Shown here piece by piece: positions 1-13,094 of a stretch of 13,094 nucleotides of DNA (within the stretch, counting starts at the first letter, position 1; each line of letters opens with the position of its first letter). Source of the stretch: a virus (taxonomy: Duplodnaviria > Heunggongvirae > Uroviricota > Caudoviricetes). Both the position numbers and the translations under genes were made by a program. The stretch is taken from the IMG/VR virus record IMGVR_UViG_2703718822_000001, positions 1 to 13,094 of that record. One strand, given 5' to 3'. Below the pieces are notes generated by a model, which saw only the letters and a list, made by a program, of their open reading frames with translations, searched no databases and was not told where the DNA came from.

Positions 1-318
1 ATCTTCAAACGCATACGAAGCCATAATTCGCATCACTGCCGGTTTTATTTCTGCCGGGAGTTTTCTTAACGCCGCCACGCGATCACACCGACTGAGTGCA
101 TATTCTGTCAGCAATTCTGTTGCCCGCTCTCTGTCATTCATACTAATGCCCATTTTCCCAAGGAACGCAGAAAACCCCATCTCAGCCCGATTCTGTGTCA
201 TGCCCTGCGCGGCCATCACATCAGTGATACTCAGCGCATCTTTTGACGTTGAGGCCGATGCATCAGTCAGGCCGGGGGATTTTGGGGAGTAGTATTTCGG
301 TAAATCTTCCAGTTTCAT
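1..318 (-). CDS. late-gene antiterminator Q (phage 82 / QuuQ-like), N-terminal ~106 aa; rest of gene lies beyond the window start
   Basis: Minus-strand frame opens with ATG at 316-318, overlapping the rusA stop as ATGA, and stays open to position 1. Translation MKLEDLPKYYSPKSPGLTDASASTSKDALSITDVMAAQGM... resembles the N-terminus of phage 82-type Q proteins as I recall them. Position directly downstream of rusA is the canonical Q slot. Not in the ORF track because it is truncated by the window edge. Confidence 0.7.
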   Translation of the reverse strand, partial: MKLEDLPKYYSPKSPGLTDASASTSKDALSITDVMAAQGMTQNRAEMGFSAFLGKMGISMNDRERATELLTEYALSRCDRVAALRKLPAEIKPAVMRIMASYAFED

Positions 319-689
319 TTTTTGACCTGCTCTTCAAGCATTATGGGGTAAATCTTCACCCCCAGACGTCCACCAGATACTGGCTGACCACGTACAATAT
401 TGATTTCATCAAACTGCTCGTCATCAATAAGCACTCCCGCATGCGTCAGCGCATCCAGCGGTGCTTTCAGAATATTGTCCAGGTCGCGACGACGCTTATC
501 CGGTGGCTCTGCAATAATTTTTATTGCCAGCCGTCCGGACAGGCTTAATTTCAGTCGCAGCTGGCGAACAATAAGCGCCACTGCCCGGCGATAACGCTCC
601 CCTGCTTTTGATACAAAATATGTGCTGCCACGGCGTCTCCAGTAAGTGTTCACCGTCGGCGGGTAAGGTAAAACCAAATCTATGAGCAT
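315..689 (-). CDS. rusA: RusA-family Holliday junction resolvase
   Basis: 124-aa ORF. Motifs PDKRRRDLDN and SGGRL match the RusA catalytic region (E. coli RusA has PDRRRRDLDN and KGGRL). RBS GAGGTG about 6 nt upstream of the ATG at 687-689. Sits in the nin-region slot next to Q. Confidence 0.85.
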   Translation of the reverse strand: MLIDLVLPYPPTVNTYWRRRGSTYFVSKAGERYRRAVALIVRQLRLKLSLSGRLAIKIIAEPPDKRRRDLDNILKAPLDALTHAGVLIDDEQFDEINIVRGQPVSGGRLGVKIYPIMLEEQVKK

Positions 690-701
690 CAGTCACCTCT
701 T

Positions 702-1751
702 TTACCCGAGCACGCCAGTCGCAAAGGCGTGATCAAGAAAACGAAAAATTAACTCAATCTGAGAGCCGTACTTTTTCTCAAACTCCAGCGGGTCTGCATG
801 AAGTTCGTTGTGGTGCTCCCGGCACAACGGTAGCGTGAAAATATCGTGGGCCTTTGTCCCCATTCCCCCCTGACCATGACCAATCAGGTGATGCGGATCG
901 TCAGCAGGCTTACCACAACACGCACACGGCTGTGTCTTTACCCAGCGCGTGTATTTCTCATTTACCCAACGGCGACGTTTAGGTCGCCTCATGAAAGATT
1001 CCGGAGACTCCGGATCAACGGCAATGCTGAGCACCGCCTTTTCCTGTGGTGAGGGTTGTTGCTGGTGGACGTGAGGCAACGGCGCAAGATTTTTTGTGCG
1101 CTGATTCAGTATGCTGGTGGCGGTCTGCTCTCCCGGTACGATGTCGCTCTCACGGTATACTGAGCGGATTTTTTCCGCTGGTAATCCCAGCGAACGACGC
1201 GCTACTGCCTCAGGTAGTGCATCCACCACCTGATTGCAGACCGCCCACCAGGATAATTCGGCCAGCGATAACTCCCTCTCCTGCGTACCGCTTATTGCGT
1301 GACGGATGACGTCAATCATCCAGGCAACCAGATTCTGCTGAGCAAGTTGCGCCAGTGAATCAGATGTCTGGTCGCGCAGCTGGTTGTCGCAGTGCCAGCA
1401 CAACACCATCGCGCCGGAACCGTAACGATGTATGACAGTTTCGCTGTGATGATAATCGCCATGTGACCACTGGCAGGATTTCACGTGACGTAATAACCAG
1501 TCAGACAGTGCACCAGCACCACCTACTGCACGAATTACCCGCTCATCGCTGAAAAATGGCAGTAATGATTTATCCTCAGCCAGCGGCTGGCGAACGGCAG
1601 GAACGACTCCGGACGACAGACCGCGCATGCTTTTCGGTTCCGGCTCCACCAGCACCCTGCAGCAATGAAAAACCGGCAGTGATTCGCGACCAGGTTTAAG
1701 GACCACCAGGCCAAGTTCCGGTACCAGAACAGGTCTAAGTAATATCCGCAC
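702..1751 (-). CDS. ydfU: YdfU-like prophage protein (DUF968 type) with C-terminal HNH-like Cys/His motif
   Basis: 349-aa ORF, GTG start with GGAGG RBS 5 nt upstream. C-terminal CACCGKPADDPHHLIGHG...LCREHHNELH looks like an HNH/zinc-finger nuclease motif; N-terminal half has a CWHCDNQ / HGDYHH cluster. Same length as K-12 Qin YdfU as I recall it, and adjacent to Q as in Qin. Confidence 0.55.
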   Translation of the reverse strand: MRILLRPVLVPELGLVVLKPGRESLPVFHCCRVLVEPEPKSMRGLSSGVVPAVRQPLAEDKSLLPFFSDERVIRAVGGAGALSDWLLRHVKSCQWSHGDYHHSETVIHRYGSGAMVLCWHCDNQLRDQTSDSLAQLAQQNLVAWMIDVIRHAISGTQERELSLAELSWWAVCNQVVDALPEAVARRSLGLPAEKIRSVYRESDIVPGEQTATSILNQRTKNLAPLPHVHQQQPSPQEKAVLSIAVDPESPESFMRRPKRRRWVNEKYTRWVKTQPCACCGKPADDPHHLIGHGQGGMGTKAHDIFTLPLCREHHNELHADPLEFEKKYGSQIELIFRFLDHAFATGVLG

Positions 1752-1752
1752 G

Positions 1753-2085
1753 TTACCTCCAGATGCGCTGCTGGAATGTGCGGGACGGACGCGGTGGGCG
1801 TTCGGAGTAAGGGAGTCTGACTGAGATTATCCAGTGACGGTAGTCGAGGCTAAGAGCTTTCTTAACCTCGTATCCGCGCCTGCGGTAACACTGAATTATC
1901 CATTCAGCCTGCTCTTCAGTGCATGGAGGATGCTGGAACCAGTCTGATTTGAATGCATGAGAACGCCGCCCGTGCCTGCAGGCAGGAGCGGCAGAGTTAT
2001 CCGAATTGTAAAATCTGGTATCGTGCGCCATCGGTTGTCTCTGCTGGCGCAGCAGGTGCCAGTTGTTCAGGCTGGCGTGTGGCAA
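1753..2085 (-). CDS. hypothetical protein (start uncertain; TTG at 2085 or ATG at 2029-2031)
   Basis: ORF-track ORF whose stop abuts the ydfU-like start, suggesting translational coupling. No strong RBS at either candidate start and no recognisable motifs. Confidence 0.35.
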   Translation of the reverse strand: MPHASLNNWHLLRQQRQPMAHDTRFYNSDNSAAPACRHGRRSHAFKSDWFQHPPCTEEQAEWIIQCYRRRGYEVKKALSLDYRHWIISVRLPYSERPPRPSRTFQQRIWR

Positions 2086-2129
2086 TATTGTCTCTGATTT
2101 CTGTTGTCGTCAACCGCTTCTGTGCTTAC

Positions 2130-2162
2130 TCACTTGATGAGTGAAACGATTAACTTTACTAT
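2130..2162 (+). promoter_or_regulatory. candidate sigma70 promoter with overlapping palindromic operator for the 2213-2548 gene
   Basis: -35-like TTGATG (2134-2139), 17-bp spacer, -10-like TACTAT (2157-2162). Palindrome TCACT-TGATG-AGTGA at 2130-2144 overlaps the -35. Confidence 0.35.
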
Positions 2163-2212
2163 TTACTTAACAGGTTTTTCCTGTACCACGATTCCCCATA
2201 CAGGAGGCCAAC

Positions 2213-2548
2213 ATGAGTGATGACAAAAAAATTGAGTTCAGCACCAGTGATGTGTTGAATGCTTTACTCCATCGCCAGCAGAACATGCAACACCTGGCGA
2301 CACAGGAAAGCGTTGATAACCTGCGTCGTGAGATTGATGGTCGATTCAATTCTTCACAGGACAACGTTGATAACTTCCGACGTGAGGTCGATAGTCGCTT
2401 TAATTCTTTGCAAAACCAGCTAATATCGGTTGATAAGCGCCTGGACAAGCTGGAAACCAAGTTTGATCGACTCCAGTGGTTTATTGTTGCTGCCGCTCTG
2501 GCTCTCATCTTCAAGGATTACATCTTCAGGATTATTGGTGCTCAGTAA
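2213..2548 (+). CDS. small tail-anchored coiled-coil protein with internal tandem repeat (moron; FlxA-position or XhlA-like architecture, family not established)
   Basis: 111-aa ORF with strong AGGAGG RBS 6 nt before the ATG. Two tandem 18-aa repeats (ESVDNLRREIDGRFNSSQ and DNVDNFRREVDSRFNSLQ) encoded by a diverged 54-bp tandem DNA repeat. C-terminal hydrophobic anchor WFIVAAALALIF. Convergent with the surrounding minus-strand operon; own promoter and terminator. Confidence 0.7.
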   Translation: MSDDKKIEFSTSDVLNALLHRQQNMQHLATQESVDNLRREIDGRFNSSQDNVDNFRREVDSRFNSLQNQLISVDKRLDKLETKFDRLQWFIVAAALALIFKDYIFRIIGAQ

Positions 2549-2550
2549 AT

Positions 2551-2578
2551 CCGGCCCCGTTTTCGGGGCTATCTTTTC
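2551..2578 (+). terminator. Rho-independent terminator
   Basis: Stem GCCCCG (2554-2559), loop TTTT, stem CGGGGC (2564-2569), followed by T-rich tail TATCTTTTC, immediately after the TAA stop at 2546-2548. Confidence 0.7.
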
Positions 2579-2733
2579 GCATCTGCATCAGACTTTCCAC
2601 CAACTTTTTATTGCCAGCTTCTGCAATCTACTCTACCTTATGTGCGTCAGAACGGCGCAATGCGCTCGCCTGAGATACGTTTACTTGCCATGGTAACAAC
2701 AGGTAACAGCAATTGTTGTTTCTGTTTTGTTTG

Positions 2734-2817
2734 TTATCCCCAGCGGCAAATCGAATACACCACCAGCGCCACCGCCATCGCAATTCCTACCGTTGTGAAT
2801 GCTTCAGGCCAGGTCAT
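2734..2817 (-). CDS. candidate 27-aa single-TM micropeptide, translationally coupled to the DUF551 gene
   Basis: ATG at 2815-2817 overlaps the DUF551 TGA stop (ATGA). Translation MTWPEAFTTVGIAMAVALVVYSICRWG, then stop. Below the ORF-track size cutoff; hand-translated. Confidence 0.3.
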   Translation of the reverse strand: MTWPEAFTTVGIAMAVALVVYSICRWG

Positions 2818-3371
2818 TGATTCACCTCCTGCGGCGGTTCTGGTAGCGGCATCCAGTGGGTTGCTTGCCTAAGATCATTACCCGGACTAACTGCTATACC
2901 TCCGCGCCGGAACGTGCCTCCGAGATAGCGTGCGGAATATATTAATGGCCCTGCCTCGCTATCGATATTCATCGAAATAAGCACGTTCTGGCTCTTTTCA
3001 GGCATTCGCTCAGTACAGCTTATCCAGCCATCCGGAGTTATCGGAGATCTGGTTGACGTTTCCGAGATTTCCCGAAAATTGTTGGTTGACGAATTCTTAT
3101 TTTCCCGAAAGTTTCCGGCCTGAAGCATGGCGACGCGGCAGGCGTTCCAGCCATCAGCATATGTTTTAGTTACACCGTCGAGATGGCAGGTAAGCAAATC
3201 CATTTCATCAGGCACTACCATTGCTATCGGCTCTGCTTCCAGTGATGCCAGCGCGATACGAAACACATTAGCCAGCAGGCTGTCTGAAGACTTGTTATCG
3301 TGCGCCGAGTCGCTCAGGAAGCCTGTGATGTATGATTTAATCTCCGCGCGTTCTCTGGTAATAGTGCTCAT
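2814..3371 (-). CDS. DUF551-domain phage protein
   Basis: 185-aa ORF with AGGAA RBS 8 nt upstream of the ATG. C-terminal W/P-rich signature DGWISCTERMPE...THWMPLPEPP, typical of the lambdoid DUF551 domain as I recall it. Confidence 0.65.
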   Translation of the reverse strand: MSTITRERAEIKSYITGFLSDSAHDNKSSDSLLANVFRIALASLEAEPIAMVVPDEMDLLTCHLDGVTKTYADGWNACRVAMLQAGNFRENKNSSTNNFREISETSTRSPITPDGWISCTERMPEKSQNVLISMNIDSEAGPLIYSARYLGGTFRRGGIAVSPGNDLRQATHWMPLPEPPQEVNQ

Positions 3372-3717
3372 ATCAGTTTTCCTTATACGGATTAATTTTA
3401 TTGTGCAGTGCGCTGAATGATTCCCATGTCACATCGGTATATAGCTCAATAACTGGTTCAAATGTCCTTCCAATTATCCAGACCAGTAATAGCGGGGATA
3501 TCGGTATCATCAACACTATAAACAGAATGAAAAACAGAAACTCTGTTGTTCTGCTCTTTCGTGGGTAATTTTTTCTAAATAATGTTTCATTTCTTACCGC
3601 CCTTTCGGGCGGCCTCCTGATGTTCTGAGGGTGCAGGAATCCCTCCGGTTAAGGATTTAATAAAAATCGTTTCTGATTTAAATCTTCAGTATTTAGTTGT
3701 TAGTTGGTTTATCGCCT

Positions 3718-4029
3718 TTATGCTTCAGCCTTATTTCGCAACCAGACACAAACCGGGCCATCTTCCGTATCATGAATGGAACCAATAAACCAGCCATCGC
3801 CCTCTGGTCGTTCCGGTTCCCATGCTGAAATATCAGGGCCATCTGCGTCCAGGTTAAAATCATCTTCATCCATAGTGCAGATAGTCCACTGAAGATTATT
3901 TGCCTCCATCCACGCGTTAAATTCTTCCGTTGAAATATTCTCCCGACCATCACAGAATTTTTCATATTCAGGATGTGTCCAGTAGCCATATTCGTCACGA
4001 ACTACCGGCATTTCTTTAATTTCACTCAC
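3718..4029 (-). CDS. hypothetical acidic phage protein
   Basis: 103-aa ORF, GTG start at 4029 preceded by AGGAGG at 8-nt spacing (alternative in-frame ATG at 4009-4011). Acidic, Trp-rich. Start overlaps the upstream gene stop. Confidence 0.5.
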   Translation of the reverse strand: MSEIKEMPVVRDEYGYWTHPEYEKFCDGRENISTEEFNAWMEANNLQWTICTMDEDDFNLDADGPDISAWEPERPEGDGWFIGSIHDTEDGPVCVWLRNKAEA

Positions 4030-4249
4030 TGTTAACCTCCTGCAACGCTACACGATACGCCTTCTTTATCCACGCCTTACTGCCATATAATTTCGTCTTC
4101 ATAATAAACACACCTGCACGACTCGCCGATATCCCCGGACAGGTTAACAGCACAGCATCCACCACACGGTTATGCTTCCGGAACTCCATTACAGTACTGC
4201 TGATAAGCACCTGCCCCACCGGGCCGTAATCCTGATACAGGATTTTCAC
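4022..4249 (-). CDS. hypothetical protein
   Basis: 75-aa ORF, GTG start at 4249 preceded by AGGAGG at 8-9 nt; GTGA overlap with the stop of the upstream gene. Confidence 0.45.
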   Translation of the reverse strand: MKILYQDYGPVGQVLISSTVMEFRKHNRVVDAVLLTCPGISASRAGVFIMKTKLYGSKAWIKKAYRVALQEVNSE

Positions 4250-4500
4250 GCAGACACCCTCCTGTCGAAATAAACGTAGTTATTCACTGTGCGCAACGGC
4301 ATTCCGAATTTTCTGGCGATTTCTCTCCTCGACACGCCACGCTGATGCTGCTGTCGCGCCAGCTCAATATCACTCTGCGGATATTTTGCTGACTGGTGAT
4401 AATCACCCCGTAACATCATACTAATACCCAGTTCCCGCGCTTTCGTTCTGACCGCAGCCTCACTACGACCAATAAGCATCCCGATGCATTCCACCGTCAT
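4246..4500 (-). CDS. small DNA-binding protein with two HTH-like segments (NinH-like style)
   Basis: Chosen start is the ATG at 4498-4500 (MTVECIGMLIGRSEAAVRTKARELGI...). The ORF-track start at 4650 is a GTG that would overlap the upstream gene by 90 nt. Second HTH-like segment QRGVSRREIARKFGMPLRTVNNYV. Confidence 0.45.
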   Translation of the reverse strand: MTVECIGMLIGRSEAAVRTKARELGISMMLRGDYHQSAKYPQSDIELARQQHQRGVSRREIARKFGMPLRTVNNYVYFDRRVSA

Positions 4501-4559
4501 TGTTCCCGCACACTGCCGGAGTATCAGGATTTCCGCCCGGCACCACGTCTTCCAGCCAC

Positions 4560-5264
4560 TCACTGTTGCTGCTCTCTGGTGGTGGTAATATCCCGGAGAA
4601 TATCCCTGTGTTTGTTCAGTTCCCGCAGCGCGGCACAGACACGCTCCCACTTCTGGACATGACTTTTCGCCCGGCGCAGCTCGCGGTTAGCCACATTCAG
4701 CGATGGTAGAATCAGGTCATCTGCTTTCGTTTCGGTAAACGATGGCAGCGACTGCACAATGTCCGCCACAGTATCTGTTTTAATTTCTTCCTGTGTCGCC
4801 GCTTCCTGTACCGGTAACGCAACTCCTGCTGGCTGAGGAAAGGCTTTACCATCCGTTTCCGCTACGGATGCAGCTTCCGGCTCTGCCGGTAAATCAGCGC
4901 CCGGTATGCAGTAACGAAATTTACCACCCTGATTCACGCGAATCAGACGACCTTTGCTGATTGCCATCGCCAGTGATGAATTCGCCCGGCGGGAGGTAAT
5001 CCCGAACATTAACGCCAGTTCGTCAGCCGACTGAGGACCATGCTGTTCAATCGCGTTAATCAGCATCTCTGCAGTGGTTTTTGGGGCCTCTTCAGTTGCC
5101 TCACTCGTCAGCCACCACATCGACCCCTTGTTATCAGCTTCGCCACGACGCTTCAGCTTCCAGAGTTCGGTAACAGCATCGTCACGGCTGATTTCAAGAC
5201 GGGCTGCAATCTCGTGCGACGAGGCTTTTTTCAGTGCTTTCAGTGCGTCAAAAACGGTTTCCAT
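4560..5264 (-). CDS. hypothetical protein with tandem winged-helix-like N-terminal domains
   Basis: Start moved to ATG 5262-5264 ([13 protein letters not shown]...), which has a strong GGAGGA RBS 8 nt upstream and sits in the gap after the DnaC-like stop. Two consecutive wHTH-like segments, acidic/Pro-rich linker, C-terminal coiled coil. Confidence 0.6.
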
Positions 5265-5286
5265 TAAATTTTCCTCCGGATAAAAA

Positions 5287-6039
5287 TTACTTCGCCACAC
5301 TCAGATGGCTGACATTGGGACGCCAGCTTTCCCAGTTAAAACTCACCCAGCGACCACCGTTCATGGTCATCCGGTCCATAATCCTCTCACCAAGAAGCGT
5401 GCTCATTGCGGCATGATTCAGGTTTGTCAGCATCCCGACACTGCGCAGTGATGCCGTCCGGCGATCAACAATCTGGTGCAGTACCACCTGCTCGTTTTTC
5501 GTCTCACGCTGGATGCCAATTTCGTCAAGAACCAGGAGGTCCACTTCGCACAGTTCACGCAAAAATTTTTCCCCTGACAGCCCGTCATCGTAGCTGGCAT
5601 GTAACGCGCTCATCACATCCGCCACAGTGACCACTATCACGGATTTACCGGCCTTCAGCAGACGATTACCCACAGCCGCCGCCAGATGATTTTTTCCGGT
5701 TCCCGGATTCCCGCTGAACACGAAGTTTGTATAACCGGTTATCATTTCCTCAGCGATGGATTTGGCCTGGCTCAGCGCATGTTTCTGCCCGTCGTTCCGC
5801 ACCTGGTAATTCGCGAACGAACATTTGCGGTGCAGCGGCTGGATGCCCGAACGGTTCAGGATTTTTTCCACCCGCAACTGACGATTCCGGCGGTTAATCT
5901 CCTCGCAGTATTTCCGGCCTTCGGCAAGTTGCCACTCGCGCCACTCCTCCGGCGTACAGTACGGCACGGTTGCGCGTTCAGAAGCCAGTCTGCGGATGCG
6001 TTCCAGAACACCAACTGCAACTGTCGCGATATCTTTCAT
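5287..6039 (-). CDS. DnaC/IstB-type AAA+ replicative helicase loader (lambda P analogue; YdaV-like)
   Basis: 250 aa. Walker [16 protein letters not shown] and Walker B-like DLLVLDEIG. Immediately downstream of the O-like initiator. Confidence 0.85.
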
Positions 6040-6045
6040 GGTCAG

Positions 6046-7014
6046 TTACCCCCTGAAACCCGGTGGAATTTCAGTGTCCGGTTCAGAAATATGATTCACG
6101 CAACTCTGCGCAGGCCCACGCCCAAGACGAATGACCAGTTCATCCCATTTTTCGCGCAGTTTTGCCGGACTCATGATATTTTTTACCCAGAACGGATCCC
6201 GCTGCACCCGACTGAACATTTCACAAATCTGCCGGTGACTGCGGCCATCCAGCATGCGCATCATCCGGACATCGTTAGCCCATGTCGTCCAGTTTGGCTC
6301 TCTGGGGCGAGAAACCTCACCATCATCACTGGCTGCGTGTTCATACAGCGCAACAACACGCCCCCAGATCCACTGCGCACAGGTAATATCATCACGGGTT
6401 CCCCACTGTCGCTTCGGCACATTCCACGTATGCGCATCAGGGTGTTTATCCAGAAAGCGTTCAACCGGAGATGATTTTTTTTCGTCCGGAAGTGAAACGT
6501 CCGGACAAGAAGATCTTTTATCTGACGGATCAAGTTTTAATACTGACGGATCGGGGTCAATCATCGCCCCCCTAATCGGCTGTTTTTTATCAATGGTTGA
6601 CCCCTCAGAATTTGACGGGTCAACCATTGAGGGGTCAATATTTGACGGGTCAACTGTTAACGGGTCATTTTTTGCCGGGCTAATTTTTCTTTTCGGTTTA
6701 TATGCCTCACGCGCCGCCGCTGCCGCTGCTTCGAGTTTTTCCACATTAAGCCGATAGATATTGCTTACGTTACGCCCACCGATCTTACGCTCTTCCTTCG
6801 TCAGCCAGCCCTCTTTCGCCAGTTCTGCAATCGCAGATTTCACGGTGGATTCACTTCTGGCACCGATCTGACGCCGGATCGTTTCCATAGCAGGCCATGA
6901 CACCCCCTCGTCATTGCTGTAATCTGCAAGACGGGCCATTACTGCCACCCTTGATAAGATCATGCCAGTGAAGGCGCATCCTTCCCAGACAAGACCATGA
7001 AGCTTGCTGCTCAT
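6046..7014 (-). CDS. replication initiator (lambda O analogue / YdaU-like) with origin embedded in its linker region
   Basis: ATG at 7012-7014 with GGGGG RBS 5 nt upstream (the ORF-track start at 7029 is a GTG). N-terminal winged-helix-like domain, central D/P/S-rich repetitive linker (DPLTVDPSNIDPSMVDPSNSEGSTID...) that is encoded by the iteron DNA, then a C-terminal domain. Confidence 0.8.
   Translation of the reverse strand: MSSKLHGLVWEGCAFTGMILSRVAVMARLADYSNDEGVSWPAMETIRRQIGARSESTVKSAIAELAKEGWLTKEERKIGGRNVSNIYRLNVEKLEAAAAAAREAYKPKRKISPAKNDPLTVDPSNIDPSMVDPSNSEGSTIDKKQPIRGAMIDPDPSVLKLDPSDKRSSCPDVSLPDEKKSSPVERFLDKHPDAHTWNVPKRQWGTRDDITCAQWIWGRVVALYEHAASDDGEVSRPREPNWTTWANDVRMMRMLDGRSHRQICEMFSRVQRDPFWVKNIMSPAKLREKWDELVIRLGRGPAQSCVNHISEPDTEIPPGFRG
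6550..6706. repeat. candidate replication origin: iterons plus AT-rich region inside the O-like gene
   Basis: At least four direct repeats of (T)TGACGGGTCAA-like units at about 15-bp spacing (6611-6667: tttgacgggtcaacc / attgaggggtcaata / tttgacgggtcaact / gttaacgggtca), with further copies at 6553-6560 (ggggtcaa) and inverted at 6597-6604 (ttgacccc). Flanked by AT-rich ttttttgccgggctaatttttcttttcggtttatat (6667-6706). Confidence 0.6.
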
Positions 7015-7036
7015 AAAACCCCCGAACACCGTGCTT

Positions 7037-7462
7037 TTAGTGCATCACCACAGCATTCCCTGCCGGGCCGCCGCGATTTATCTGGTCATACAAAACGACC
7101 GCTGACGCAACAAAATCGTCGACATCCTTCACCAGCCGATCCCGCCGTTCGACAATCTCCCGGTAGTACTCAGAACTGTGACTGCGCATACGGGCCACCA
7201 GCAAAGGCGGCATCGCCTTTTCGATCGCCGGTAACAGAGCCTGAATTTTTTCAACAGCATCAGGGGTGTCTTTATCCAGCCAACGGAAAATTTTCTGGGT
7301 ATTACGAGCCAGGGCCTCAGGATGAGTGTCGTCGTACAGTTCCGGGAACGTCATCCCCAGTTCGAAATAAGTCCGGGCTATTTCAGCTGCGGGAACTTTC
7401 TCACCGTCAGGATATGCCCAGGCATTCATCGCCATGCGGATGTGCTCATGCTTGATTTTCAT
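7037..7462 (-). CDS. ydaT: YdaT-family protein (proposed CII-like regulator in Rac-type immunity regions)
   Basis: 141 aa, starts MKIKHEHI and ends ...VVMH, matching my recollection of Rac YdaT (about 140 aa). ATG overlaps the Cro-like stop (ATGA at 7459-7462). Third gene position as in racR-ydaS-ydaT. Confidence 0.55.
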   Translation of the reverse strand: MKIKHEHIRMAMNAWAYPDGEKVPAAEIARTYFELGMTFPELYDDTHPEALARNTQKIFRWLDKDTPDAVEKIQALLPAIEKAMPPLLVARMRSHSSEYYREIVERRDRLVKDVDDFVASAVVLYDQINRGGPAGNAVVMH

Positions 7463-7713
7463 GAATCAACTCCCAACAGCTTTTTCGTAGTAGTTTTATT
7501 TCTGCCAATAGTTAAAATTGCATCGGCAGAAAATAATCCGTTTGATGCATGAGCGATTTTTTCAGCATAATTTGTTTCGCCGGTATATTCAGTGCGAGGC
7601 AATTTTCCGTTATCCATCCATTTGTAGATTGCTCTTTGGCTGACACCACAAACGTCGGCCACAACAGAAACGCGAACAGTTTTGATTACATCTTCAAGTG
7701 TTTTCTGGTTCAT
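7459..7713 (-). CDS. Cro-like HTH repressor (DicC/YdaS family)
   Basis: Start set at ATG 7711-7713 (MNQKTLEDVIK...), with GAGGGTG RBS 6 nt upstream. The ORF-track start at 7785 would leave only 8 bp before the divergent repressor gene. HTH segment VADVCGVSQRAIYKWMDNGKLP. Confidence 0.7.
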   Translation of the reverse strand: MNQKTLEDVIKTVRVSVVADVCGVSQRAIYKWMDNGKLPRTEYTGETNYAEKIAHASNGLFSADAILTIGRNKTTTKKLLGVDS

Positions 7714-7792
7714 ATCACCCTCACAATGTGAACTTTGAGTACACTCTATAACAGAACTGACAGTACATTCAAGAGCGAATATCATTGAACTT
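7714..7792. promoter_or_regulatory. divergent immunity promoter/operator region (PR/PRM analogue)
   Basis: 79-bp AT-rich gap between the divergent Cro-like and repressor starts. Repeated GTACA-core motifs: GAGTACACT (7737-7745) and AGTACATT (7760-7767). Confidence 0.6.
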
Positions 7793-8212
7793 ATGGTTCA
7801 TGAAGATAAAGCGCGTAAAGAGTTCGCCAGTAGGCTTGCGCTAGCCTGTGAAAACGCTGGTTATGAACAACATGGAAGGCAGGCAGAAATTGCCCGTCGA
7901 ATGAAATTAACACCAAAAGCGGTTAGCAAATGGTTTAATGGCGAAACAATTCCTCGCCGAGAGAAATTAAGGGAATTAGCAACACTCATTGGAACAACAC
8001 CAACCTATCTTTTGGGAGAGGATACAGAAGAAAGTGGACAGGTACGTTTCTATCAGGAGTTAAATCCAAGACAAAAAATCATCATTGATCTTCTGGACGA
8101 GCTCCCTGACAGTGAGACAGATGAACTTTTAAAAACTCTTGAGGAGAAAAAACAAAAGTACAATGCAATTTACGAAGAGTTAGCACGAAAGAAAAAACAA
8201 AAAGCCTCTTAA
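7793..8212 (+). CDS. dicA: DicA-like (RacR-like) XRE-family HTH immunity repressor without a peptidase S24 domain
   Basis: 139 aa. HTH region GRQAEIARRMKLTPKAVSKWFNGETIPRREKLRELATLIGTTPTYLLGED. C-terminal LNPRQKIIIDLLDELPDSETDELL... resembles the DicA C-terminus as I recall it. Divergent from the Cro-like gene and followed by ydfA/B/C-dicF-dicB as in Qin. Symbol is by synteny plus resemblance. Confidence 0.7.
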   Translation: MVHEDKARKEFASRLALACENAGYEQHGRQAEIARRMKLTPKAVSKWFNGETIPRREKLRELATLIGTTPTYLLGEDTEESGQVRFYQELNPRQKIIIDLLDELPDSETDELLKTLEEKKQKYNAIYEELARKKKQKAS

Positions 8213-8275
8213 ACCAGCATAAATCCGGTAGCGTCCCCCTCCGGGTTTGTGTTTCACTTTTTCCCATCTCATTTT

Positions 8276-8335
8276 TTTACACATAAAATGTACTTAAAGT
8301 ACTTTACAACACTGAACATAAAGTACATTATATAC
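8276..8335 (+). promoter_or_regulatory. candidate repressor-controlled promoter of the downstream dicB-type operon
   Basis: AT-rich region with -35-like TTTACA (8303-8308) and -10-like CATTAT (8326-8331), overlapped by GTAC-core operator-like repeats ATGTACTTAAAGTACTTT (8287-8304) and AAGTACATT (8321-8329). The 8-mer AGTACATT is identical to that at 7760-7767. Confidence 0.4.
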
Positions 8336-8510
8336 ATACCAACCCACCCCGCCCCACAGAACGCAGGGCAATACTTCGAGTTACCAGGCAGTGGTCAGGG
8401 GTTAAGTAGCCAGCCCGAGGCGTAAGAACATGACGGCAGGGTTCAACTTTAATAACTATGCAGCAGGTTTTTGTTCCGCTACCCCGGCGTTAAGGGGAAA
8501 TGAGGTCAGC

Positions 8511-8666
8511 ATGGATACTATCGATCTTGGCAACAACGAATCTCTGGTGTACGGCGTGTTTCCAAACCAAGACGGTACGTTCACCGCGATGACGTATACC
8601 AGAAGCAAAACGTTTAAAACCGAAGCTGGCGCGCGTCGCTGGCTGGAAAGAAATTCAGGTGAGTGA
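8511..8666 (+). CDS. ydfA: YdfA-like small protein (51 aa)
   Basis: Start set at ATG 8511 (MDTIDLGNNESLVYGVFPNQ...), which has a GAGGT RBS at 5-nt spacing; the ORF-track start at 8430 has a weaker RBS. Resulting 51 aa equals the K-12 YdfA length, and it is the first gene after the DicA-like repressor. Confidence 0.55.
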   Translation: MDTIDLGNNESLVYGVFPNQDGTFTAMTYTRSKTFKTEAGARRWLERNSGE

Positions 8667-8667
8667 T

Positions 8668-8796
8668 ATGGATTTCGACGCAATCATGGAAAAGGCTTAC
8701 GAAGAATACTTCGAAGGCCTTGCCGAAGGCGAAGAAGCTCTCAGCTTCAGTGAGTTTAAACAGGCGCTTTCCAGTTCGGCAAAATCTAACGACTGA
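8668..8796 (+). CDS. ydfB: YdfB-like small acidic protein (42 aa)
   Basis: Hand-translated: MDFDAIMEKAYEEYFEGLAEGEEALSFSEFKQALSSSAKSND. ATG 1 nt after the ydfA-like TGA. 42 aa equals the K-12 YdfB length. Below the ORF-track cutoff. Confidence 0.55.
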   Translation: MDFDAIMEKAYEEYFEGLAEGEEALSFSEFKQALSSSAKSND

Positions 8797-8825
8797 TAAG
8801 CGAAGCGGCACCGCGAGGAATCAGT

Positions 8826-9041
8826 ATGCAGAAACGAGAACCCGTCATCATCGCACCAGACTATACCGAGGATGAAATTTACGAATGGATGTGCGGAAAG
8901 ATACGCGCCATTAATGACCTGAAGCAGGCCGCTGACTACAAAGAGCGCCTCTCTAAAGAACTGGTGTCAGCGGAGCAGGATATTACCACTCTGGCAAAAA
9001 GCGCGGCATTAAACGTTTCGCGAGTGATTGAAAACTACTGA
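8826..9041 (+). CDS. ydfC: YdfC-like small protein (71 aa)
   Basis: 71-aa ORF with GAGGAA RBS. Third small gene of the operon; K-12 YdfC is 72 aa as I recall. Confidence 0.55.
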   Translation: MQKREPVIIAPDYTEDEIYEWMCGKIRAINDLKQAADYKERLSKELVSAEQDITTLAKSAALNVSRVIENY

Positions 9042-9130
9042 CCAATGAGCTCAAGTAGTTCTCCGCAGATGAAGTGCGTGCGCCGGACACGGATAAACCT
9101 CCGGCATGCTCTTTAACAATCTGGATATTC

Positions 9131-9577
9131 CTAACCACAAAGAAATCGCATCAATTTGGATTTTGTGGGCAACTTCTCGTGTTGTTCGATGGAGACGCCT
9201 ATTTTGATCTGTGTTTTTAAGATCGCAATATCTTTAAGTGATGACCAAATATGATCATCTGTTTTTCCCAGAGTTTTTAACTGAATTTTCAATTCCGAAT
9301 CAGAATATTTTTCTGCATCATCAAAAAGCTGCAAATATTCTGCGGATTTTCTCATGGCATTACCTGACTTTTGTCCGAATCCATAAATCGTTTGGTCGGT
9401 TGCGATCACAACAATAAAAACGCCAGAAATTTCCGGAATGAATCCGCCAATGACAGATGAACCGAGGATAATACTCACTACTGAGAGAAGTTTATCGAGA
9501 CGACCAGTCGCTACAGAAAACAGTTGCTCAAGAAAATAGCCATATAAAATTCTGTCAAGAATATCATCCCGGTCCAT
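9131..9577 (-). CDS. reverse-oriented two-TM membrane protein; candidate superinfection-exclusion / abortive-infection effector (SieB-like position, SLATT-like topology)
   Basis: 148-aa ORF, ATG at 9575-9577 with AGGTGA RBS. Two adjacent hydrophobic helices (LLSVVSIILGSSVIGGFI and ISGVFIVVIATDQTIYGF) followed by about 78 aa of soluble, charged C-terminus. Locally AT-rich compared with neighbours. Opposite orientation to the dicA-dicB operon and lying where K-12 Qin, as I recall, has only a short ydfC-dicF spacer. Confidence 0.7.
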   Translation of the reverse strand: MDRDDILDRILYGYFLEQLFSVATGRLDKLLSVVSIILGSSVIGGFIPEISGVFIVVIATDQTIYGFGQKSGNAMRKSAEYLQLFDDAEKYSDSELKIQLKTLGKTDDHIWSSLKDIAILKTQIKIGVSIEQHEKLPTKSKLMRFLCG

Positions 9578-9636
9578 ACACCATCACCTGCTTGTGCTCT
9601 TTGCTCTGTCATATGATTTCCTTGGATCGTTGGGGA

Positions 9637-9672
9637 TATCCAGATTATACAGATTTCCTGTCGTTGGGGAAT
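9637..9672 (-). promoter_or_regulatory. candidate promoter for the 9131-9577 gene
   Basis: Perfect -10 TATAAT on the minus strand (complement of 9644-9649), preceded by TG; weak -35 TTCCCC (complement of 9667-9672) at 17-bp spacing. About 65-nt leader to the ATG. Confidence 0.35.
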
Positions 9673-9926
9673 GACGGAAACCACCTCGCCTGACGTGGTT
9701 AAAAGCAGGCACACAACACGAAAGCGCACGGCGAAGTTCGTCTCACTGCACGGTGTCGTTAAATTTAATTCGACCGTGCGCTTCCGGTTGTGGCGCCCCG
9801 CGAAATGGCGCGGCGGTAAGTATGGCGGGGGTGGGAGGGACGCCTTTCCCCGTTGAGGACACCGGGTTGTCAGGTTGACCATACGCTTAAGTGACAACCC
9901 CGCTACAACGCCCTCTGTTATCAATA

Positions 9927-9984
9927 TTCTGGTGACATTTGGCGGTATCAGTTTTACTCCGTGACTGCTCTGCCGCCCTTTTTT
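9927..9984 (+). ncRNA. dicF: DicF small RNA (ftsZ-targeting) with intrinsic terminator-like 3' end
   Basis: ttctggtgacatttggcggtatcagttttactccgtgactgctctgccgccc followed by a run of six T (9979-9984). This matches the E. coli DicF sequence as I recall it (UUUCUGGUGACGUUUGGCGGUAUCAGUUUUACUCCGUGACUGCUCUGCCGCCC) apart from about two substitutions near the 5' end. Lies 170 bp upstream of dicB as in Qin. Confidence 0.85.
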
Positions 9985-9987
9985 AAA

Positions 9988-10139
9988 AGTGAATTTTGTG
10001 ATGCGGTGAATGCGGCTCAGCGCACGCGGAACAGTTAAAACCAAAAACAGTGTTATGGGTGGATTCTCTGTATCCGGCGTTAATTGTTAACTGGTTAACG
10101 TCACCTGGAGGCACCAGGCACCGCATCACAAAATTCATT
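9988..10139. repeat. long inverted repeat (18-bp perfect core, about 21 bp extended) bracketing 110 bp between dicF and dicB
   Basis: 9991-10008 GAATTTTGTGATGCGGTG is the exact reverse complement of 10119-10136 CACCGCATCACAAAATTC; pairing extends to 9988/10139 with one G-T. The loop contains GTTAAC-TG-GTTAAC (10087-10100) and CCTGG-aggca-CCAGG (10104-10118). Confidence 0.5.
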
Positions 10140-10154
10140 GTTGAGGACGCGATA

Positions 10155-10343
10155 ATGGAAAAGTTATCATGTAATGCCAGCACGTCTGAACTTCGTTTCG
10201 AAATTGGCGTTATCACTGGAGACAAAACATTTATTGAAGACGCCATTAAGCAGAGAAAACTCGAGCAGGACCTGTTAAATGAAGTATGCATTCCTTCAAT
10301 GCTGGCTCGTCTGGACCTGCTGCAAAAAGGATATAAACAATGA
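10155..10343 (+). CDS. dicB: DicB cell-division inhibitor (MinC-dependent FtsZ antagonist)
   Basis: 62 aa: MEKLSCNASTSELRFEIGVITGDKTFIEDAIKQRKLEQDLLNEVCIPSMLARLDLLQKGYKQ. Closely parallels E. coli DicB as I recall it (same length; FEIGV...TEDAI..RK...LLN..CI.SMLARL). GAGGA RBS. Stop overlaps the ydfD-like ATG (ATGA). Confidence 0.85.
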   Translation: MEKLSCNASTSELRFEIGVITGDKTFIEDAIKQRKLEQDLLNEVCIPSMLARLDLLQKGYKQ

Positions 10344-10531
10344 ATACAACATTTGCACTCGTTCTGACAGTTTATCTTGTTTCCGGCGAATCTCTTGAGC
10401 TGGTGACTGGCTTATACGGTTCAATGAAAGAATGCATGGCTGCAGCAGCAGAACAAAAAATTCCCGGTAACTGTTATCCGGTAGATAAAACTACTCACAC
10501 TAATAATAACGAAATACCGGCAGGACTTTAA
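10340..10531 (+). CDS. ydfD: YdfD-like small protein with N-terminal hydrophobic segment (reported lysis-type protein in Qin)
   Basis: 63 aa, equal to the K-12 YdfD length, directly after dicB. N-terminal TFALVLTVYLVSG hydrophobic helix. Confidence 0.55.
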   Translation: MNTTFALVLTVYLVSGESLELVTGLYGSMKECMAAAAEQKIPGNCYPVDKTTHTNNNEIPAGL

Positions 10532-10624
10532 AACAGCACCGTAATTAATATCCGGTTTCATTTTTATATGCCAGCAATGGCAGGGATTTGTTCACCCTTA
10601 AATCTGTAATGAGGTTAAAACAAA

Positions 10625-13094
10625 ATGAGTAAAGTCTTTATTTGCGCCGCCATTCCGGACGAACAGGCAATAAAAGAAGAGGGCGCAGTTGCTGTAGCCA
10701 CTGCCATTGAAGCCGGTGATGAACGCCGCGCCCGTGCCAAATTTACCTGGCAATTCCTGGAGCAATATCCTGCTGCTCAGGACTGCGCTTATAAATTTCT
10801 TGTCTGCGAAGATAAACCCGGCATGCCCCGCCCTGCTATCGACTCCTGGGATACCGAATATATGCAGGAAAACCGCTGGGATGAGGAATCCGCTTCCTTT
10901 ATTCCGGTCGAACCAGAATCCGATCCTATTAACGTCAATTTTGACAAGCTGTCCCTTGAAGTACAGAACGCGGCCCTAGTTAAGTTCGGTACATGTGAAA
11001 ACATCACCGTTGATATGGCGATTGACGCGCAGGAATTACTGCAAGAAGACGTGGCTACCTTTGACGGGCATATCGTTGAAGCACTGATGAAAACGCCTGA
11101 AATTAACGCTATGTATCCGGAACGCAAACTGTTCGCTATCGGATGGGTTAAACACAAATGTAAGCCGGGTACCAAATGGCCCGAAATTCAGGCTGAATTA
11201 CGTAACTGGAAAAAACGGCAGGACGCAGAGCGCAAAGAGACTGGAAAATACACGTCTGTTGTTGATCTTGCCCGCGCCAAAGCCAACCGACAGCACACTG
11301 AAAACCCAGCAGAAAAAATCCCTCCTGTAACTGCCGCCATTCATCGCGAATACAAGCAGACATGGAAAACCCTGGACAGGGAGCTGGCCTACTATCTCTG
11401 GCCTGGTGATGCGGATGCCGGAAACATTGACGGCAGCATCCTTCGCTGGGCTAAAAATGAAATTATCGCCAGAGATCGCGAAGACTGGAAGCGCATCTCC
11501 GCATCAATGCGCAAACAACCTGATGCGCTTCGCTACAGCCGCCAGACTATTTTTGGCCTTGTCCGTGAACGCCCGATCGACATTCACAAAGATCCCGTGG
11601 CACTGAACAAATACATCACTGAATACCTGACTACAAAGGGCGTGTTTGAAGATGACGAAGGAACAAATCAGGGCACAGCTAATACTCTCTCGTCGCCAGT
11701 ACCAGAAACTGACGCAGTGGAAACGGCAATTCAGGACAACGAAAAAACCGAATGCAAAGTGGAAGTCGAATCATCTGTAGAGCGTGAGGGGCCGTTCTAC
11801 TTCCTCTTCACCGACAAGGATGGCGAAAAATACGGTCGCGCAAACAAACTTTCTGGTCTGGATAAGGCACTGGCTGCCGGGGCTACTGAAATCACGAAAG
11901 AAGAATATTTCGCCCGCAAAAACAGTACATACTCAGGTTCACAACAAAATACTGGTGCATCTGACACGACCGCACAACCAGAGCCGGTAAAAGTTACCGC
12001 TGACGAAGTAAACAAAATTATGCAGGCAGCCAATATCAGCCAGCCTGACGCCGATAAGTTGCTTGCTGCCTCTCGCGGAGAATTTGTTGCAGGGATTAGC
12101 GACCCGAATGATCCGAAATGGGTTAAGGGGATCCAGACCCGCGATTCTGTAAACCAGAACCAGCATGAATCGGAACGGAACTACCAAAAAGCGGAACAAA
12201 ACAGCCCAAATGCGTTACAAAACGAGCCAGAAACGAAACAGCCTGAACCAGTGGCGCAACAGGAAGTGGAAAAAGTCTGCACCGCCTGCGGTCAGACCGA
12301 CGGCGGCAACTGCCCTGATTGTGGCGCGGTGATGGGCGACGCAACATACCAGGAAACATTCGATGAAGAGTATCAGGTTGAAGTTCAGGAAGATGATCCG
12401 GAGAAAATGGAAGGCGCTGAACATCCACACAAGGAGAACACTGGCGGCAATCAGCATCACGATAGCGATAATGAAACTGGCGAGACGGCAGATCACTCAA
12501 TTAAGGTGAACAGTCATCAAGAAATCACATCCACCAGCAGGACGTGTGACCATCTAATGATCGACCTTGAAACCATGGGAAAAAATCCTGATGCCCCGAT
12601 CATCTCAATAGGTGCAATATTTTTCGATCCGCAAACCGGAGATATGGGACCGGAATTTAGTAAGACTATCGATCTGGAAACTGCTGGCGGAGTCATTGAT
12701 CGGGACACCATTAAATGGTGGCTTAAGCAATCACGCGAAGCGCAATCTGCCATTATGACCGATGAAATCCCGTTAGATGATGCACTGTTACAATTGCGGG
12801 AATTTATCGACGAAAACTCCGGTGAATTTTTTGTTCAGGTCTGGGGAAATGGAGCCAACTTCGACAACACGATTTTGCGCCGTTCATACGAACGGCAGGG
12901 GATCCCCTGCCCGTGGCGTTACTACAACGATCGCGATGTACGCACAATCGTTGAGCTGGGGAAAGCCATAGACTTCGATGCCAGAACGGCTATTCCATTC
13001 GAAGGTGAGCGCCATAATGCACTTGATGACGCCCGTTACCAGGCAAAATACGTTTCAGTTATCTGGCAAAAACTGATCCCGAGTCAGGCTGATT
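10625..13094 (+). CDS. large early-left-operon protein (at least 823 aa, 3' end beyond window) with C4 zinc ribbon and DEDDh 3'-5' exonuclease domain; YdfE/RecE-position protein
   Basis: I hand-checked codon by codon: ATG at 10625 (GAGGT RBS 9 nt upstream) and no in-frame stop through 13093. Absent from the ORF track only because it runs off the window. Zinc ribbon CTACGQTDGGNCPDCG at about 12283-12330. Exonuclease motifs: Exo I MIDLETMG (about 12557-12580), Exo II GNGANFDNTIL, Exo III HNALDDARYQAKY (His codon 13013-13015). Confidence 0.8.
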   Translation, partial: MSKVFICAAIPDEQAIKEEGAVAVATAIEAGDERRARAKFTWQFLEQYPAAQDCAYKFLVCEDKPGMPRPAIDSWDTEYMQENRWDEESASFIPVEPESDPINVNFDKLSLEVQNAALVKFGTCENITVDMAIDAQELLQEDVATFDGHIVEALMKTPEINAMYPERKLFAIGWVKHKCKPGTKWPEIQAELRNWKKRQDAERKETGKYTSVVDLARAKANRQHTENPAEKIPPVTAAIHREYKQTWKTLDRELAYYLWPGDADAGNIDGSILRWAKNEIIARDREDWKRISASMRKQPDALRYSRQTIFGLVRERPIDIHKDPVALNKYITEYLTTKGVFEDDEGTNQGTANTLSSPVPETDAVETAIQDNEKTECKVEVESSVEREGPFYFLFTDKDGEKYGRANKLSGLDKALAAGATEITKEEYFARKNSTYSGSQQNTGASDTTAQPEPVKVTADEVNKIMQAANISQPDADKLLAASRGEFVAGISDPNDPKWVKGIQTRDSVNQNQHESERNYQKAEQNSPNALQNEPETKQPEPVAQQEVEKVCTACGQTDGGNCPDCGAVMGDATYQETFDEEYQVEVQEDDPEKMEGAEHPHKENTGGNQHHDSDNETGETADHSIKVNSHQEITSTSRTCDHLMIDLETMGKNPDAPIISIGAIFFDPQTGDMGPEFSKTIDLETAGGVIDRDTIKWWLKQSREAQSAIMTDEIPLDDALLQLREFIDENSGEFFVQVWGNGANFDNTILRRSYERQGIPCPWRYYNDRDVRTIVELGKAIDFDARTAIPFEGERHNALDDARYQAKYVSVIWQKLIPSQAD

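Follow-up and report, generated by a model that had tools for sequence, protein, structure and literature searches.

Results

The DNA analysed here, called the window below, is a 13,094-nucleotide (nt) stretch from a virus of the class Caudoviricetes (IMG/VR virus record IMGVR_UViG_2703718822_000001, positions 1 to 13,094), whose right end is occupied by a single long gene on the plus strand (10625-13094). We found that this gene encodes a YdfE/RecE-like DEDDh exonuclease of about 824 amino acids (aa), which, judging from its sequence, is a mosaic of a noncatalytic RecE-type scaffold, making up the first ~630 residues, and a swapped C-terminal exonuclease. The C-terminal domain is predicted to be a two-metal DEDDh 3'-5' exonuclease, tethered by flexible linkers to the scaffold.

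Extent and completeness of the gene

An earlier note on this DNA had pointed to a large open reading frame (ORF) running from 10625 to the end of the window, and translation indeed gave 823 codons with zero stops, whereas the remaining frames of the same span contained 22 and 73 stops on the plus strand and 40, 16 and 25 on the minus strand. By simple arithmetic, the chance of a random open frame of 823 codons is ~(61/64)^823, roughly 1e-17, and the base composition by codon position is coding-like, with 38% G at position 1 and 39% A at position 2. Upstream, the frame is bounded by an in-frame TAA at 10616-10618, so that the ATG at 10625 is the earliest possible start. Located 10 nt 5' of the ATG is a Shine-Dalgarno-like motif, GAGG (10611-10614, +), which reads as a plausible ribosome-binding site.

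The closest relative was found in Escherichia coli 07_3636 (NZ_CP074928), with 98% nt identity across 3.1 kb, for which RefSeq gives one coding sequence (CDS) of 823 aa at the matching place. Past the last bases of the window, the sequence of this relative runs ...caggctgatTTTTAA, that is, ...CAG GCT GAT TTT TAA (...QADF*), indicating that the stop codon is completed 5 nt past the window edge and that the full protein has about 824 aa. The last codon (F) and the stop would thus lie beyond the edge, and the protein appears to be essentially complete, not the start of a larger one. The former estimate of at least 823 aa was therefore right for the 823 open codons, but the total is only about 824 aa. 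In addition, PHROG 2082 spans residues 1-823 of 823, and the absence of the gene from the list of ORFs supplied with the sequence is explained by the omission from that list of ORFs that run off the source.

Six minus-strand ORFs overlapping the gene had been regarded as antisense artefacts. This interpretation is supported by the lack of a Pfam or PHROG family match for any of the six and by the RefSeq annotation of the NZ_CP074928 region, which contains no minus-strand CDS. Nor was the gene split into several smaller genes in its relatives, as it is present as a single intact CDS in 3,511 genomes.

The C-terminal DEDDh exonuclease domain

Residues 643-814 (12551-13066, +) form a DEDDh (DnaQ-like) 3'-5' exonuclease domain, matching the Pfam family PF16473 (Rv2179c-like) with an E-value of 2.3e-67 and a score of 226.5 bits against a cut-off of 27, over profile positions 2-177 of 177. 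In an alignment to T4 DexA (exonuclease A), the motifs DxE, D and H-x4-D were all present and the catalytic set was intact, with D647, E649, D747, H797 and D802 aligned to D7/E9, D119, H186 and D191 of DexA, the roles of which have been described (PMC12153337). A sequence search of the PDB returned as the sole relatives of solved structure the entries 8KEL and 8KEN, both of which are T4 DexA, a 3'-5' DNA exonuclease. The two domains belong to the same DEDDh fold family and share about 28% identity over 134 residues (E 1.5e-6). However, DexA and its E. coli homologue EcD are small stand-alone proteins, whereas the domain found here is the tail of an 824-aa protein, and neither the insertions of DexA nor its proposed residues for the recognition of 5-hydroxymethylcytosine (5hmC) are conserved.

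This domain stands in the place of the PD-(D/E)XK 5'-3' exonuclease (DUF3799) of RecE. Specifically, no match to PF12684 (DUF3799) was obtained at E <= 0.1, whereas K-12 RecE matched this family at 4e-28 in the same library; BLASTP gave no significant match to RecE past RecE residue 591; and a phmmer search with RecE 606-866 returned nothing having the architecture of a YdfE scaffold plus a DEDDh domain (P0121). The NCBIfam equivalog of exonuclease VIII (ExoVIII), NF007259, scored 288.3 bits against a cut-off of 1269, with only profile positions 437-602 being matched. The earlier note had expected that extension to the right might reveal a PD-(D/E)XK nuclease domain and a recT-like annealase, but the gene ends 5 nt on and is followed by xis and int, and its catalytic part, being of the DEDDh type, is not that of RecE.

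The noncatalytic scaffold and its kinship with YdfE and RecE

The supposed relationship to RecE proved to be true for the noncatalytic part of the protein. BLASTP aligned residues 279-626 with residues 294-591 of Rac RecE (K-12, 866 aa) with an E-value of 3e-63, and residues 459-626 were close to RecE, with 77% nt identity over window nt 12052-12494 in blastn. Towards the N-terminus, the similarity was detected by profile-profile comparison with hhalign, in which residues 19-256 matched RecE 16-270, within a profile of RecE 1-290 (97.2%, E 3e-11), and residues 257-445 matched RecE 291-436 (99.8%); cross-module controls were negative, and the alignments compared had no sequences in common. Based on these comparisons, residues 1-445 are remotely homologous to, and collinear with, the RecE N-terminus, residues 1-256 corresponding to RecE 16-270 and residues 257-445 to RecE 291-436, and are followed in the same order by a close match of residues 445-626 to RecE 437-591. 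The likeness stops at residue 626 (RecE 591), about 15 residues before the catalytic domain of each protein, and this last linker is, as far as the alignments tell, the junction of the nuclease swap.

In K-12, ydfE of the Qin prophage (pseudogene b1577) was described in the earlier note as truncated by an insertion sequence (IS) element. We found that it is an N-terminal remnant cut by IS2E, in which the homology to our protein, 84% identity over residues 1-256, ends at the IS2E boundary. The neighbours dicF-dicB-ydfD are the same in both, but, unlike K-12 YdfE, which retains the first 256 residues only, the gene in the window is intact and includes the RecE-like module and the exonuclease.

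The N-terminal 640 residues were annotated by hidden Markov models and by structure, as had been recommended. Local Pfam, NCBIfam and PADLOC searches returned nothing for residues 1-440, and no match to residues 1-640 was present in the local Pfam copy. The family PF06630 (Exonuc_VIII) was likewise not matched by hmmscan, although the region is homologous to that of RecE by profile-profile comparison, having diverged below the family threshold. Precomputed annotation of proteins 100% identical over residues 1-640, however, named YdfE_N (PF27430) and YdfE_C (PF27432), and an AlphaFold2 (AF2) model of residues 1-640, built from an alignment of 56 sequences, contained several folded units.

The confident units of this model are residues 1-205, 241-340 and 391-435, with a weaker helical pair at 459-500; the low-confidence segments, 224-235, 347-391, 440-457, 502-547 and 577-640, are presumably flexible linkers. 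The first domain (residues 1-205; 10625-11239, +), modelled with a predicted local distance difference test (pLDDT) score above 90, is alpha/beta at 1-100 and helical at 110-206; it represents the YdfE-type module, which is remotely homologous to RecE 16-270 (the PF06630 region). The second domain (residues 241-340; 11345-11644, +; pLDDT about 95) is all-helical, has the top occupancy in the family alignment and is homologous to RecE about 291-353, with a BLASTP match to RecE 294-353. Residues 391-435 (11795-11929, +) form a mini-domain of a beta-hairpin and a helix with a pLDDT of 86-92, whereas that of the flanking linkers, 347-391 and 440-457, is below 50. The RecE-like central module (residues 445-626; 11957-12502, +) is close to K-12 RecE 437-591 by BLASTP, NF007259 and blastn. 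Within it lies a zinc ribbon or knuckle, C552-x2-C555-x7-C563-x2-C566 (12278-12322, +), which was read from the sequence; the AF2 model is of low confidence there. The ribbon that had been noticed near residue 555 is real: all four cysteines are invariant in six aligned sequences with this module, namely our protein and five relatives, and also in RecE, which shares the CxxC-x7-CxxC pattern.

Modular relatives of the scaffold

Residues 1-640 were searched against 1.84 billion representative proteins (E <= 1e-3), and modules were mapped on the long matches. Only 249 clusters were matched, indicating that the scaffold family is narrow. Among these relatives, a RecE-type or YdfE-type first domain combined with a DEDDh tail was found in P0121, P0123, P0130, P0142 and P0260, while P0122 is without the zinc-ribbon module and P0139 without the first domain. 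The scaffold was also found joined to the RecE PD-(D/E)XK tail, in P0144, P0193, P0245 and P0255 and, with weaker support, in P0131, P0199 and P0241.

A large group of scaffold proteins has tails of 250-350 residues with no Pfam match, which form one homology cluster with two visible subtypes. Members of the major subtype (about 265 aa) share the motif '...GTSIN..YM.MRATE.FGP.G.GWG...KKSLTDAIKKALS.LGFSADV', and sub-threshold matches to Rad52_Rad22 were seen in 10 of 15 members. An AF2 model of this tail had a pLDDT of 85, and Foldseek gave as its sole significant PDB neighbour the N-terminal domain of human Rad52 (1H2I; E 2.5e-6, probability 1.00, 175 columns). A profile search of the nuclease-less C-terminal tails against PDB sequences returned nothing, Rad52 being recognised by the fold search only. 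The major nuclease-less tail is therefore predicted, from its modelled fold, to be a Rad52-fold annealase. One of these proteins, P0129 (locus L009, 5650-7986), is encoded at the same place of the operon, between a Gam-like gene and xis-int. Zheng et al. (2025, Genome Res, PMC12315714) describe genes for DnaQ-type nucleases in the vicinity of int, as well as 'RecE-2' proteins, in which a nuclease domain is missing, and the Rad52-tail proteins may be these 'RecE-2' proteins. Like our protein, 'RecE-2' are built on the YdfE_N/YdfE_C scaffold and encoded at that operon position; unlike it, they end in the predicted Rad52-fold annealase or, in a second subgroup, in a helical domain. The fusion of the scaffold elsewhere to the RecE nuclease or to a Rad52-like annealase suggests a role in recombination or in the processing of phage DNA ends.

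Predicted Rad52-fold tails, as collected in our alignment A2, were present in P0129, P0132, P0135, P0150, P0156, P0182 and P0185, and in P0187, P0211, P0212, P0228, P0262, P0263 and P0267. The second Pfam-less subtype, of about 200 aa on the same scaffold, was observed in P0126, P0222, P0244, P0250 and P0254, with the motifs '..LSGRTDVM..EEA.GVV.CTGHL' and 'YRQQLT.AAL.G.CANPA'. P0200 (703 aa) consists of a RecE N-terminal region (residues 1-528, PF06630) joined to a RecT domain (PF03837, E 1e-42) with no nuclease domain, and may represent either recE and recT joined by a deletion or a natural fusion.

Distribution, selection and mosaicism

By megablast, the gene was found in 4,800 of 5,426 complete E. 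coli genomes. In 3,511 of these (about 65% of all) the match covered at least 80% of the gene, which occurred at as many as nine places in one genome. In E. coli genomes it is annotated as one CDS, 'exonuclease' or '3'-5' exonuclease'. It is also carried by isolated phages, including Tritos, mEp460_ev081, HannyBb and PhiR42_1, and by PPompW prophages. Broken copies exist as well, for example K-12 ydfE, some copies with IS1 or IS2 insertions, and the fragment families in PHROG.

The ratio of nonsynonymous to synonymous substitution rates (dN/dS), computed against Tritos and against the 98%-identical relative, was 0.07-0.24 on the folded domains, with 0.09-0.10 for residues 1-205, 0.07-0.24 for residues 241-340 and at most 0.14 for the DEDDh domain, and 0.66-0.73 on the disordered linker 341-390. 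The folded domains are thus under purifying selection, whereas the 341-390 linker is relaxed. Synonymous divergence from Tritos decreased from 0.79 in residues 1-205 to 0.02 in the DEDDh domain, such unevenness being a sign of recombination inside the gene. A sharp mosaic breakpoint was located at ORF nt 1363 (window about 11987, residue about 455), in the predicted disordered linker 440-457, and many E. coli genomes as well as phage vB_EcoS-640R1 match the window (98% nt) only from this point on and have a RecE-like front half in place of that of the window. The gene of vB_EcoS-640R1 (locus L005, 4114-6555) is a chimera, in which a RecE-like front, 92% identical in nt to K-12 recE nt 306-759, is followed by a back half of the window type.

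Operon context, Chi sites and phage class

The window holds a complete dicBF-type early-left operon, in the 5'-to-3' order repressor, small ORFs, DicF small RNA, dicB, ydfD (DUF1482) and exonuclease gene, and the setting is a Qin-like lambdoid early-left operon. DicF (9927-9978, +) matched Rfam RF00039 at full length with 77 bits and lies just 5' of dicB (about 10155-10343), which is followed by ydfD/DUF1482 (10340-10531); the slot directly 3' of dicB-ydfD had thus been assigned correctly to the gene. In NZ_CP074928 and in phages vB_EcoS-640R1 and Tritos, xis and then int lie directly 3' of the gene, and the order dicB, ydfD, exonuclease gene, xis, int is common to prophages and to the isolated phages Tritos and vB_EcoS-640R1. 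At the corresponding locus of these three genomes, neither recT nor another annealase was found. The gene resembles Rac recE in its location, distal in the early-left operon near xis-int, but differs from the Rac recE-recT pair in being followed not by recT but by xis and int.

A search for promoters and terminators between ydfD and the gene gave nothing above chance, with no plus-strand promoter-like site before the ATG. Co-transcription from the early-left promoter would therefore be the simplest reading, and the gene appears to be under repressor control.

Two further features of the region were observed. A 148-aa ORF at 9131-9577 (-), between ydfC-like genes and dicF, is a called gene in the identical contigs L007 and L008, and had no match to a Pfam family. 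A gene of the YdaT toxin family (7037-7462, -) and an HTH_3 repressor gene (7793-8212, +), which were identified only via the gene tables of the same contigs, flank a divergent immunity region, as in Rac and Qin.

The 13-kb window contains six Chi octamers (GCTGGTGG), compared with 0.41 expected from shuffles. One is located inside the gene (12531-12538, -) and the others are at 1061-1068 (+), 1113-1120 (+), 1646-1653 (-), 2760-2767 (-) and 7195-7202 (-). Four of the six are on the minus strand, which we read as corresponding to the 'top' strand in the conventional map of lambda. Such a Chi content agrees with that of the Gam-less lambdoid phages that Zheng et al. (2025) class as rich in Chi. 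The prototype of the 'nuclease only' class in Table 1 of that paper is Tritos, with no single-strand annealing protein, no anti-RecBCD function and many Chi sites, and the main text argues that lambdoid phages with many Chi sites rely on the RecBCD of the host when their growth depends on recombination; on the type of the Tritos nuclease the main text is silent (PMC12315714). Tritos carries an 823-aa orthologue (90% nt identity) at the same place, and the window is likewise Chi-rich.

Discussion

We consider it probable that the protein is an exonuclease of DNA 3' ends and takes part in the early DNA transactions of the phage. As an early-left protein of Qin/Tritos-type lambdoid prophages, it would be expressed from a transcript shared with dicF-dicB-ydfD, started upon induction or infection at the early-left promoter, which the repressor controls. 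The scaffold may direct the protein to the ends of DNA or to intermediates of recombination and perhaps lets it form oligomers, presumably in parallel with the scaffold of RecE, in which the N-terminal region only boosts linear-linear recombination (review PMC11611040). The C-terminal domain would remove 3'-end nucleotides via two metal ions, and the trimming of phage 3' tails or ends may let host RecBCD/RecA recombination and concatemer formation proceed. This gene is the only one of a recombination module in these phages, which have no annealase and no anti-RecBCD/Gam function and are Chi-rich, and trimming of the 3' tails or ends of phage DNA is therefore its most likely role. A specific coupling to RecBCD is much less likely than the general picture of a 3'-end exonuclease.

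Several points weigh against this explanation. The Chi excess in the window is only about twofold over the genome-wide Chi density of E. coli. Whole modules of the scaffold are absent in P0122 and P0139, suggesting that no single one is indispensable. PF16473 is named after the exoribonuclease Rv2179c, so that the substrate may be RNA or an oligonucleotide, and the literature searched (ydfE; Rv2179c with phage; exonuclease VIII with O157) contained no experiment on the protein. In addition, 3'-5' exonucleases of this kind are stated in the main text of Zheng et al. (2025, PMC12315714), citing Lovett 2011, to usually inhibit homologous recombination.

A broader hypothesis is that the YdfE/RecE N-terminal region serves lambdoid phages as a general recombination 'carrier', to which swappable effectors are joined at the disordered linker, namely the RecE 5'-3' exonuclease, the DnaQ-like 3'-5' exonuclease, the Rad52-fold annealase and possibly RecT, and that the DEDDh version represents a new one-protein recombination function preparing ends for host RecBCD-RecA. 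We regard this hypothesis as rather unlikely as a whole; if it were true, phages that are annealase-less, Gam-less and Chi-rich could ready their DNA ends for the host pathway.

The reading of the gene as a genuine RecE, a 5'-3' double-stranded DNA exonuclease with its nuclease domain and recT to the right of the window, was the idea of the earlier note. The close similarity to RecE 437-591 and the collinear remote homology over the entire N-terminus speak in its favour, as do the 'exonuclease VIII' labels in the records of Tritos, PhiR42_1 and 640R1 and the counting of such genes among ExoVIII-type recombination systems by Asadulghani et al. (2009). However, the gene stops 5 nt past the window and is followed by xis and int; no DUF3799/PD-(D/E)XK match was obtained from a library in which K-12 RecE gives one; the equivalog score was 288 bits against a cut-off of 1269; and the C-terminus is of the DEDDh type, which has the opposite polarity. 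Domain content and neighbouring genes thus exclude a genuine RecE, the probability of which we put close to nil. Hardly more probable is a decaying, functionless remnant of a RecE-type system, a view taken from the literature on defective prophages, in which six of the seven ExoVIII-type systems of the Sakai strain were scored as disrupted (Asadulghani et al. 2009). Truncated copies such as K-12 ydfE, those with IS1 or IS2 insertions and the PHROG fragment families would agree with decay, but the frame is open over 824 codons with all catalytic residues intact, dN/dS is 0.07-0.24 on the folded domains, and a single intact CDS is present in 3,511 genomes and in plaque-forming phages.

Two other explanations retain the nuclease activity but place it outside recombination. 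One is a prophage nuclease for defence or superinfection exclusion of the 'HREX' kind, which, like EcD, would selectively degrade the hydroxymethylcytosine-containing DNA of incoming T-even phages. In its favour are the homology of the catalytic domain to T4 DexA and the report by Kang et al. (2025, PMC12153337) that EcD, the DexA homologue of E. coli, digests T4 DNA and has a protective effect on cells. In addition, the neighbouring dicB is described as protective against phages in one report (PMC6832061), and most E. coli genomes keep an intact copy of the gene, in many cases within a cryptic prophage. EcD (HAK9828821.1), however, is a different, stand-alone protein, as far as its primer-encoded ends (MIDTET... 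and ...TIPETYD*), by which it is known here, allow comparison. The 5hmC-recognition residues are not kept, W152 of DexA being replaced by Y767 (aromatic but not Trp) and D169 lying in a DexA insertion that is absent here, and the change to Ala of the tetramer-forming D90, as in EcD, is also absent, D719 being aligned to D90. No PADLOC model matched, the gene seems to lack a promoter of its own and to sit in a repressed early-left operon, and the RecE-like scaffold with Rad52 and RecE partner domains in relatives points to recombination. A defensive role of this type is not favoured, and we judge it to be quite improbable. The other explanation is an early anti-defence or RNA-directed enzyme, that is, a 3'-5' exoribonuclease or nano-RNase targeted by the scaffold and removing oligonucleotide signals of the host, retron/DRT products or transcripts. 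PF16473 takes its name from a 3'-5' exoribonuclease, a RefSeq name of the protein is '3'-5' exoribonuclease domain-containing', and the position in an early operon would be typical of counter-defence genes. Nevertheless, the sequence search returned DexA, which acts on DNA, as the sole relative with a solved structure, the scaffold is common to DNA recombination enzymes, and no support was present in the literature searched, so that this explanation, too, is an improbable one.

The gene itself is already catalogued, under its RefSeq names, as PHROG 2082, by the Pfam families YdfE_N/YdfE_C and Rv2179c-like, and in the Tritos class, and earlier authors (Asadulghani et al. 2009) had placed genes of this kind among the ExoVIII-type recombination systems, most of them being 'disrupted'. 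What is added here is a clear description of the protein's layout, in which the nuclease behind a RecE scaffold has been exchanged at the last linker, a correction of the widespread 'exonuclease VIII' label, and the recognition of nuclease-less relatives with a predicted Rad52-fold annealase. Although the gene is among the commonest E. coli prophage genes, many records say 'exonuclease VIII', a name that misstates both polarity and fold and suggests a RecT partner that is absent, and the right label affects how the recombination capacity of Shiga toxin (Stx) and other lambdoid prophages is judged. The finding is also relevant to RecE itself, whose N-terminal two thirds consist of this scaffold and are used in RecET direct cloning, and the reuse of one scaffold with three recombination effectors provides an experimental handle on the function of that scaffold.

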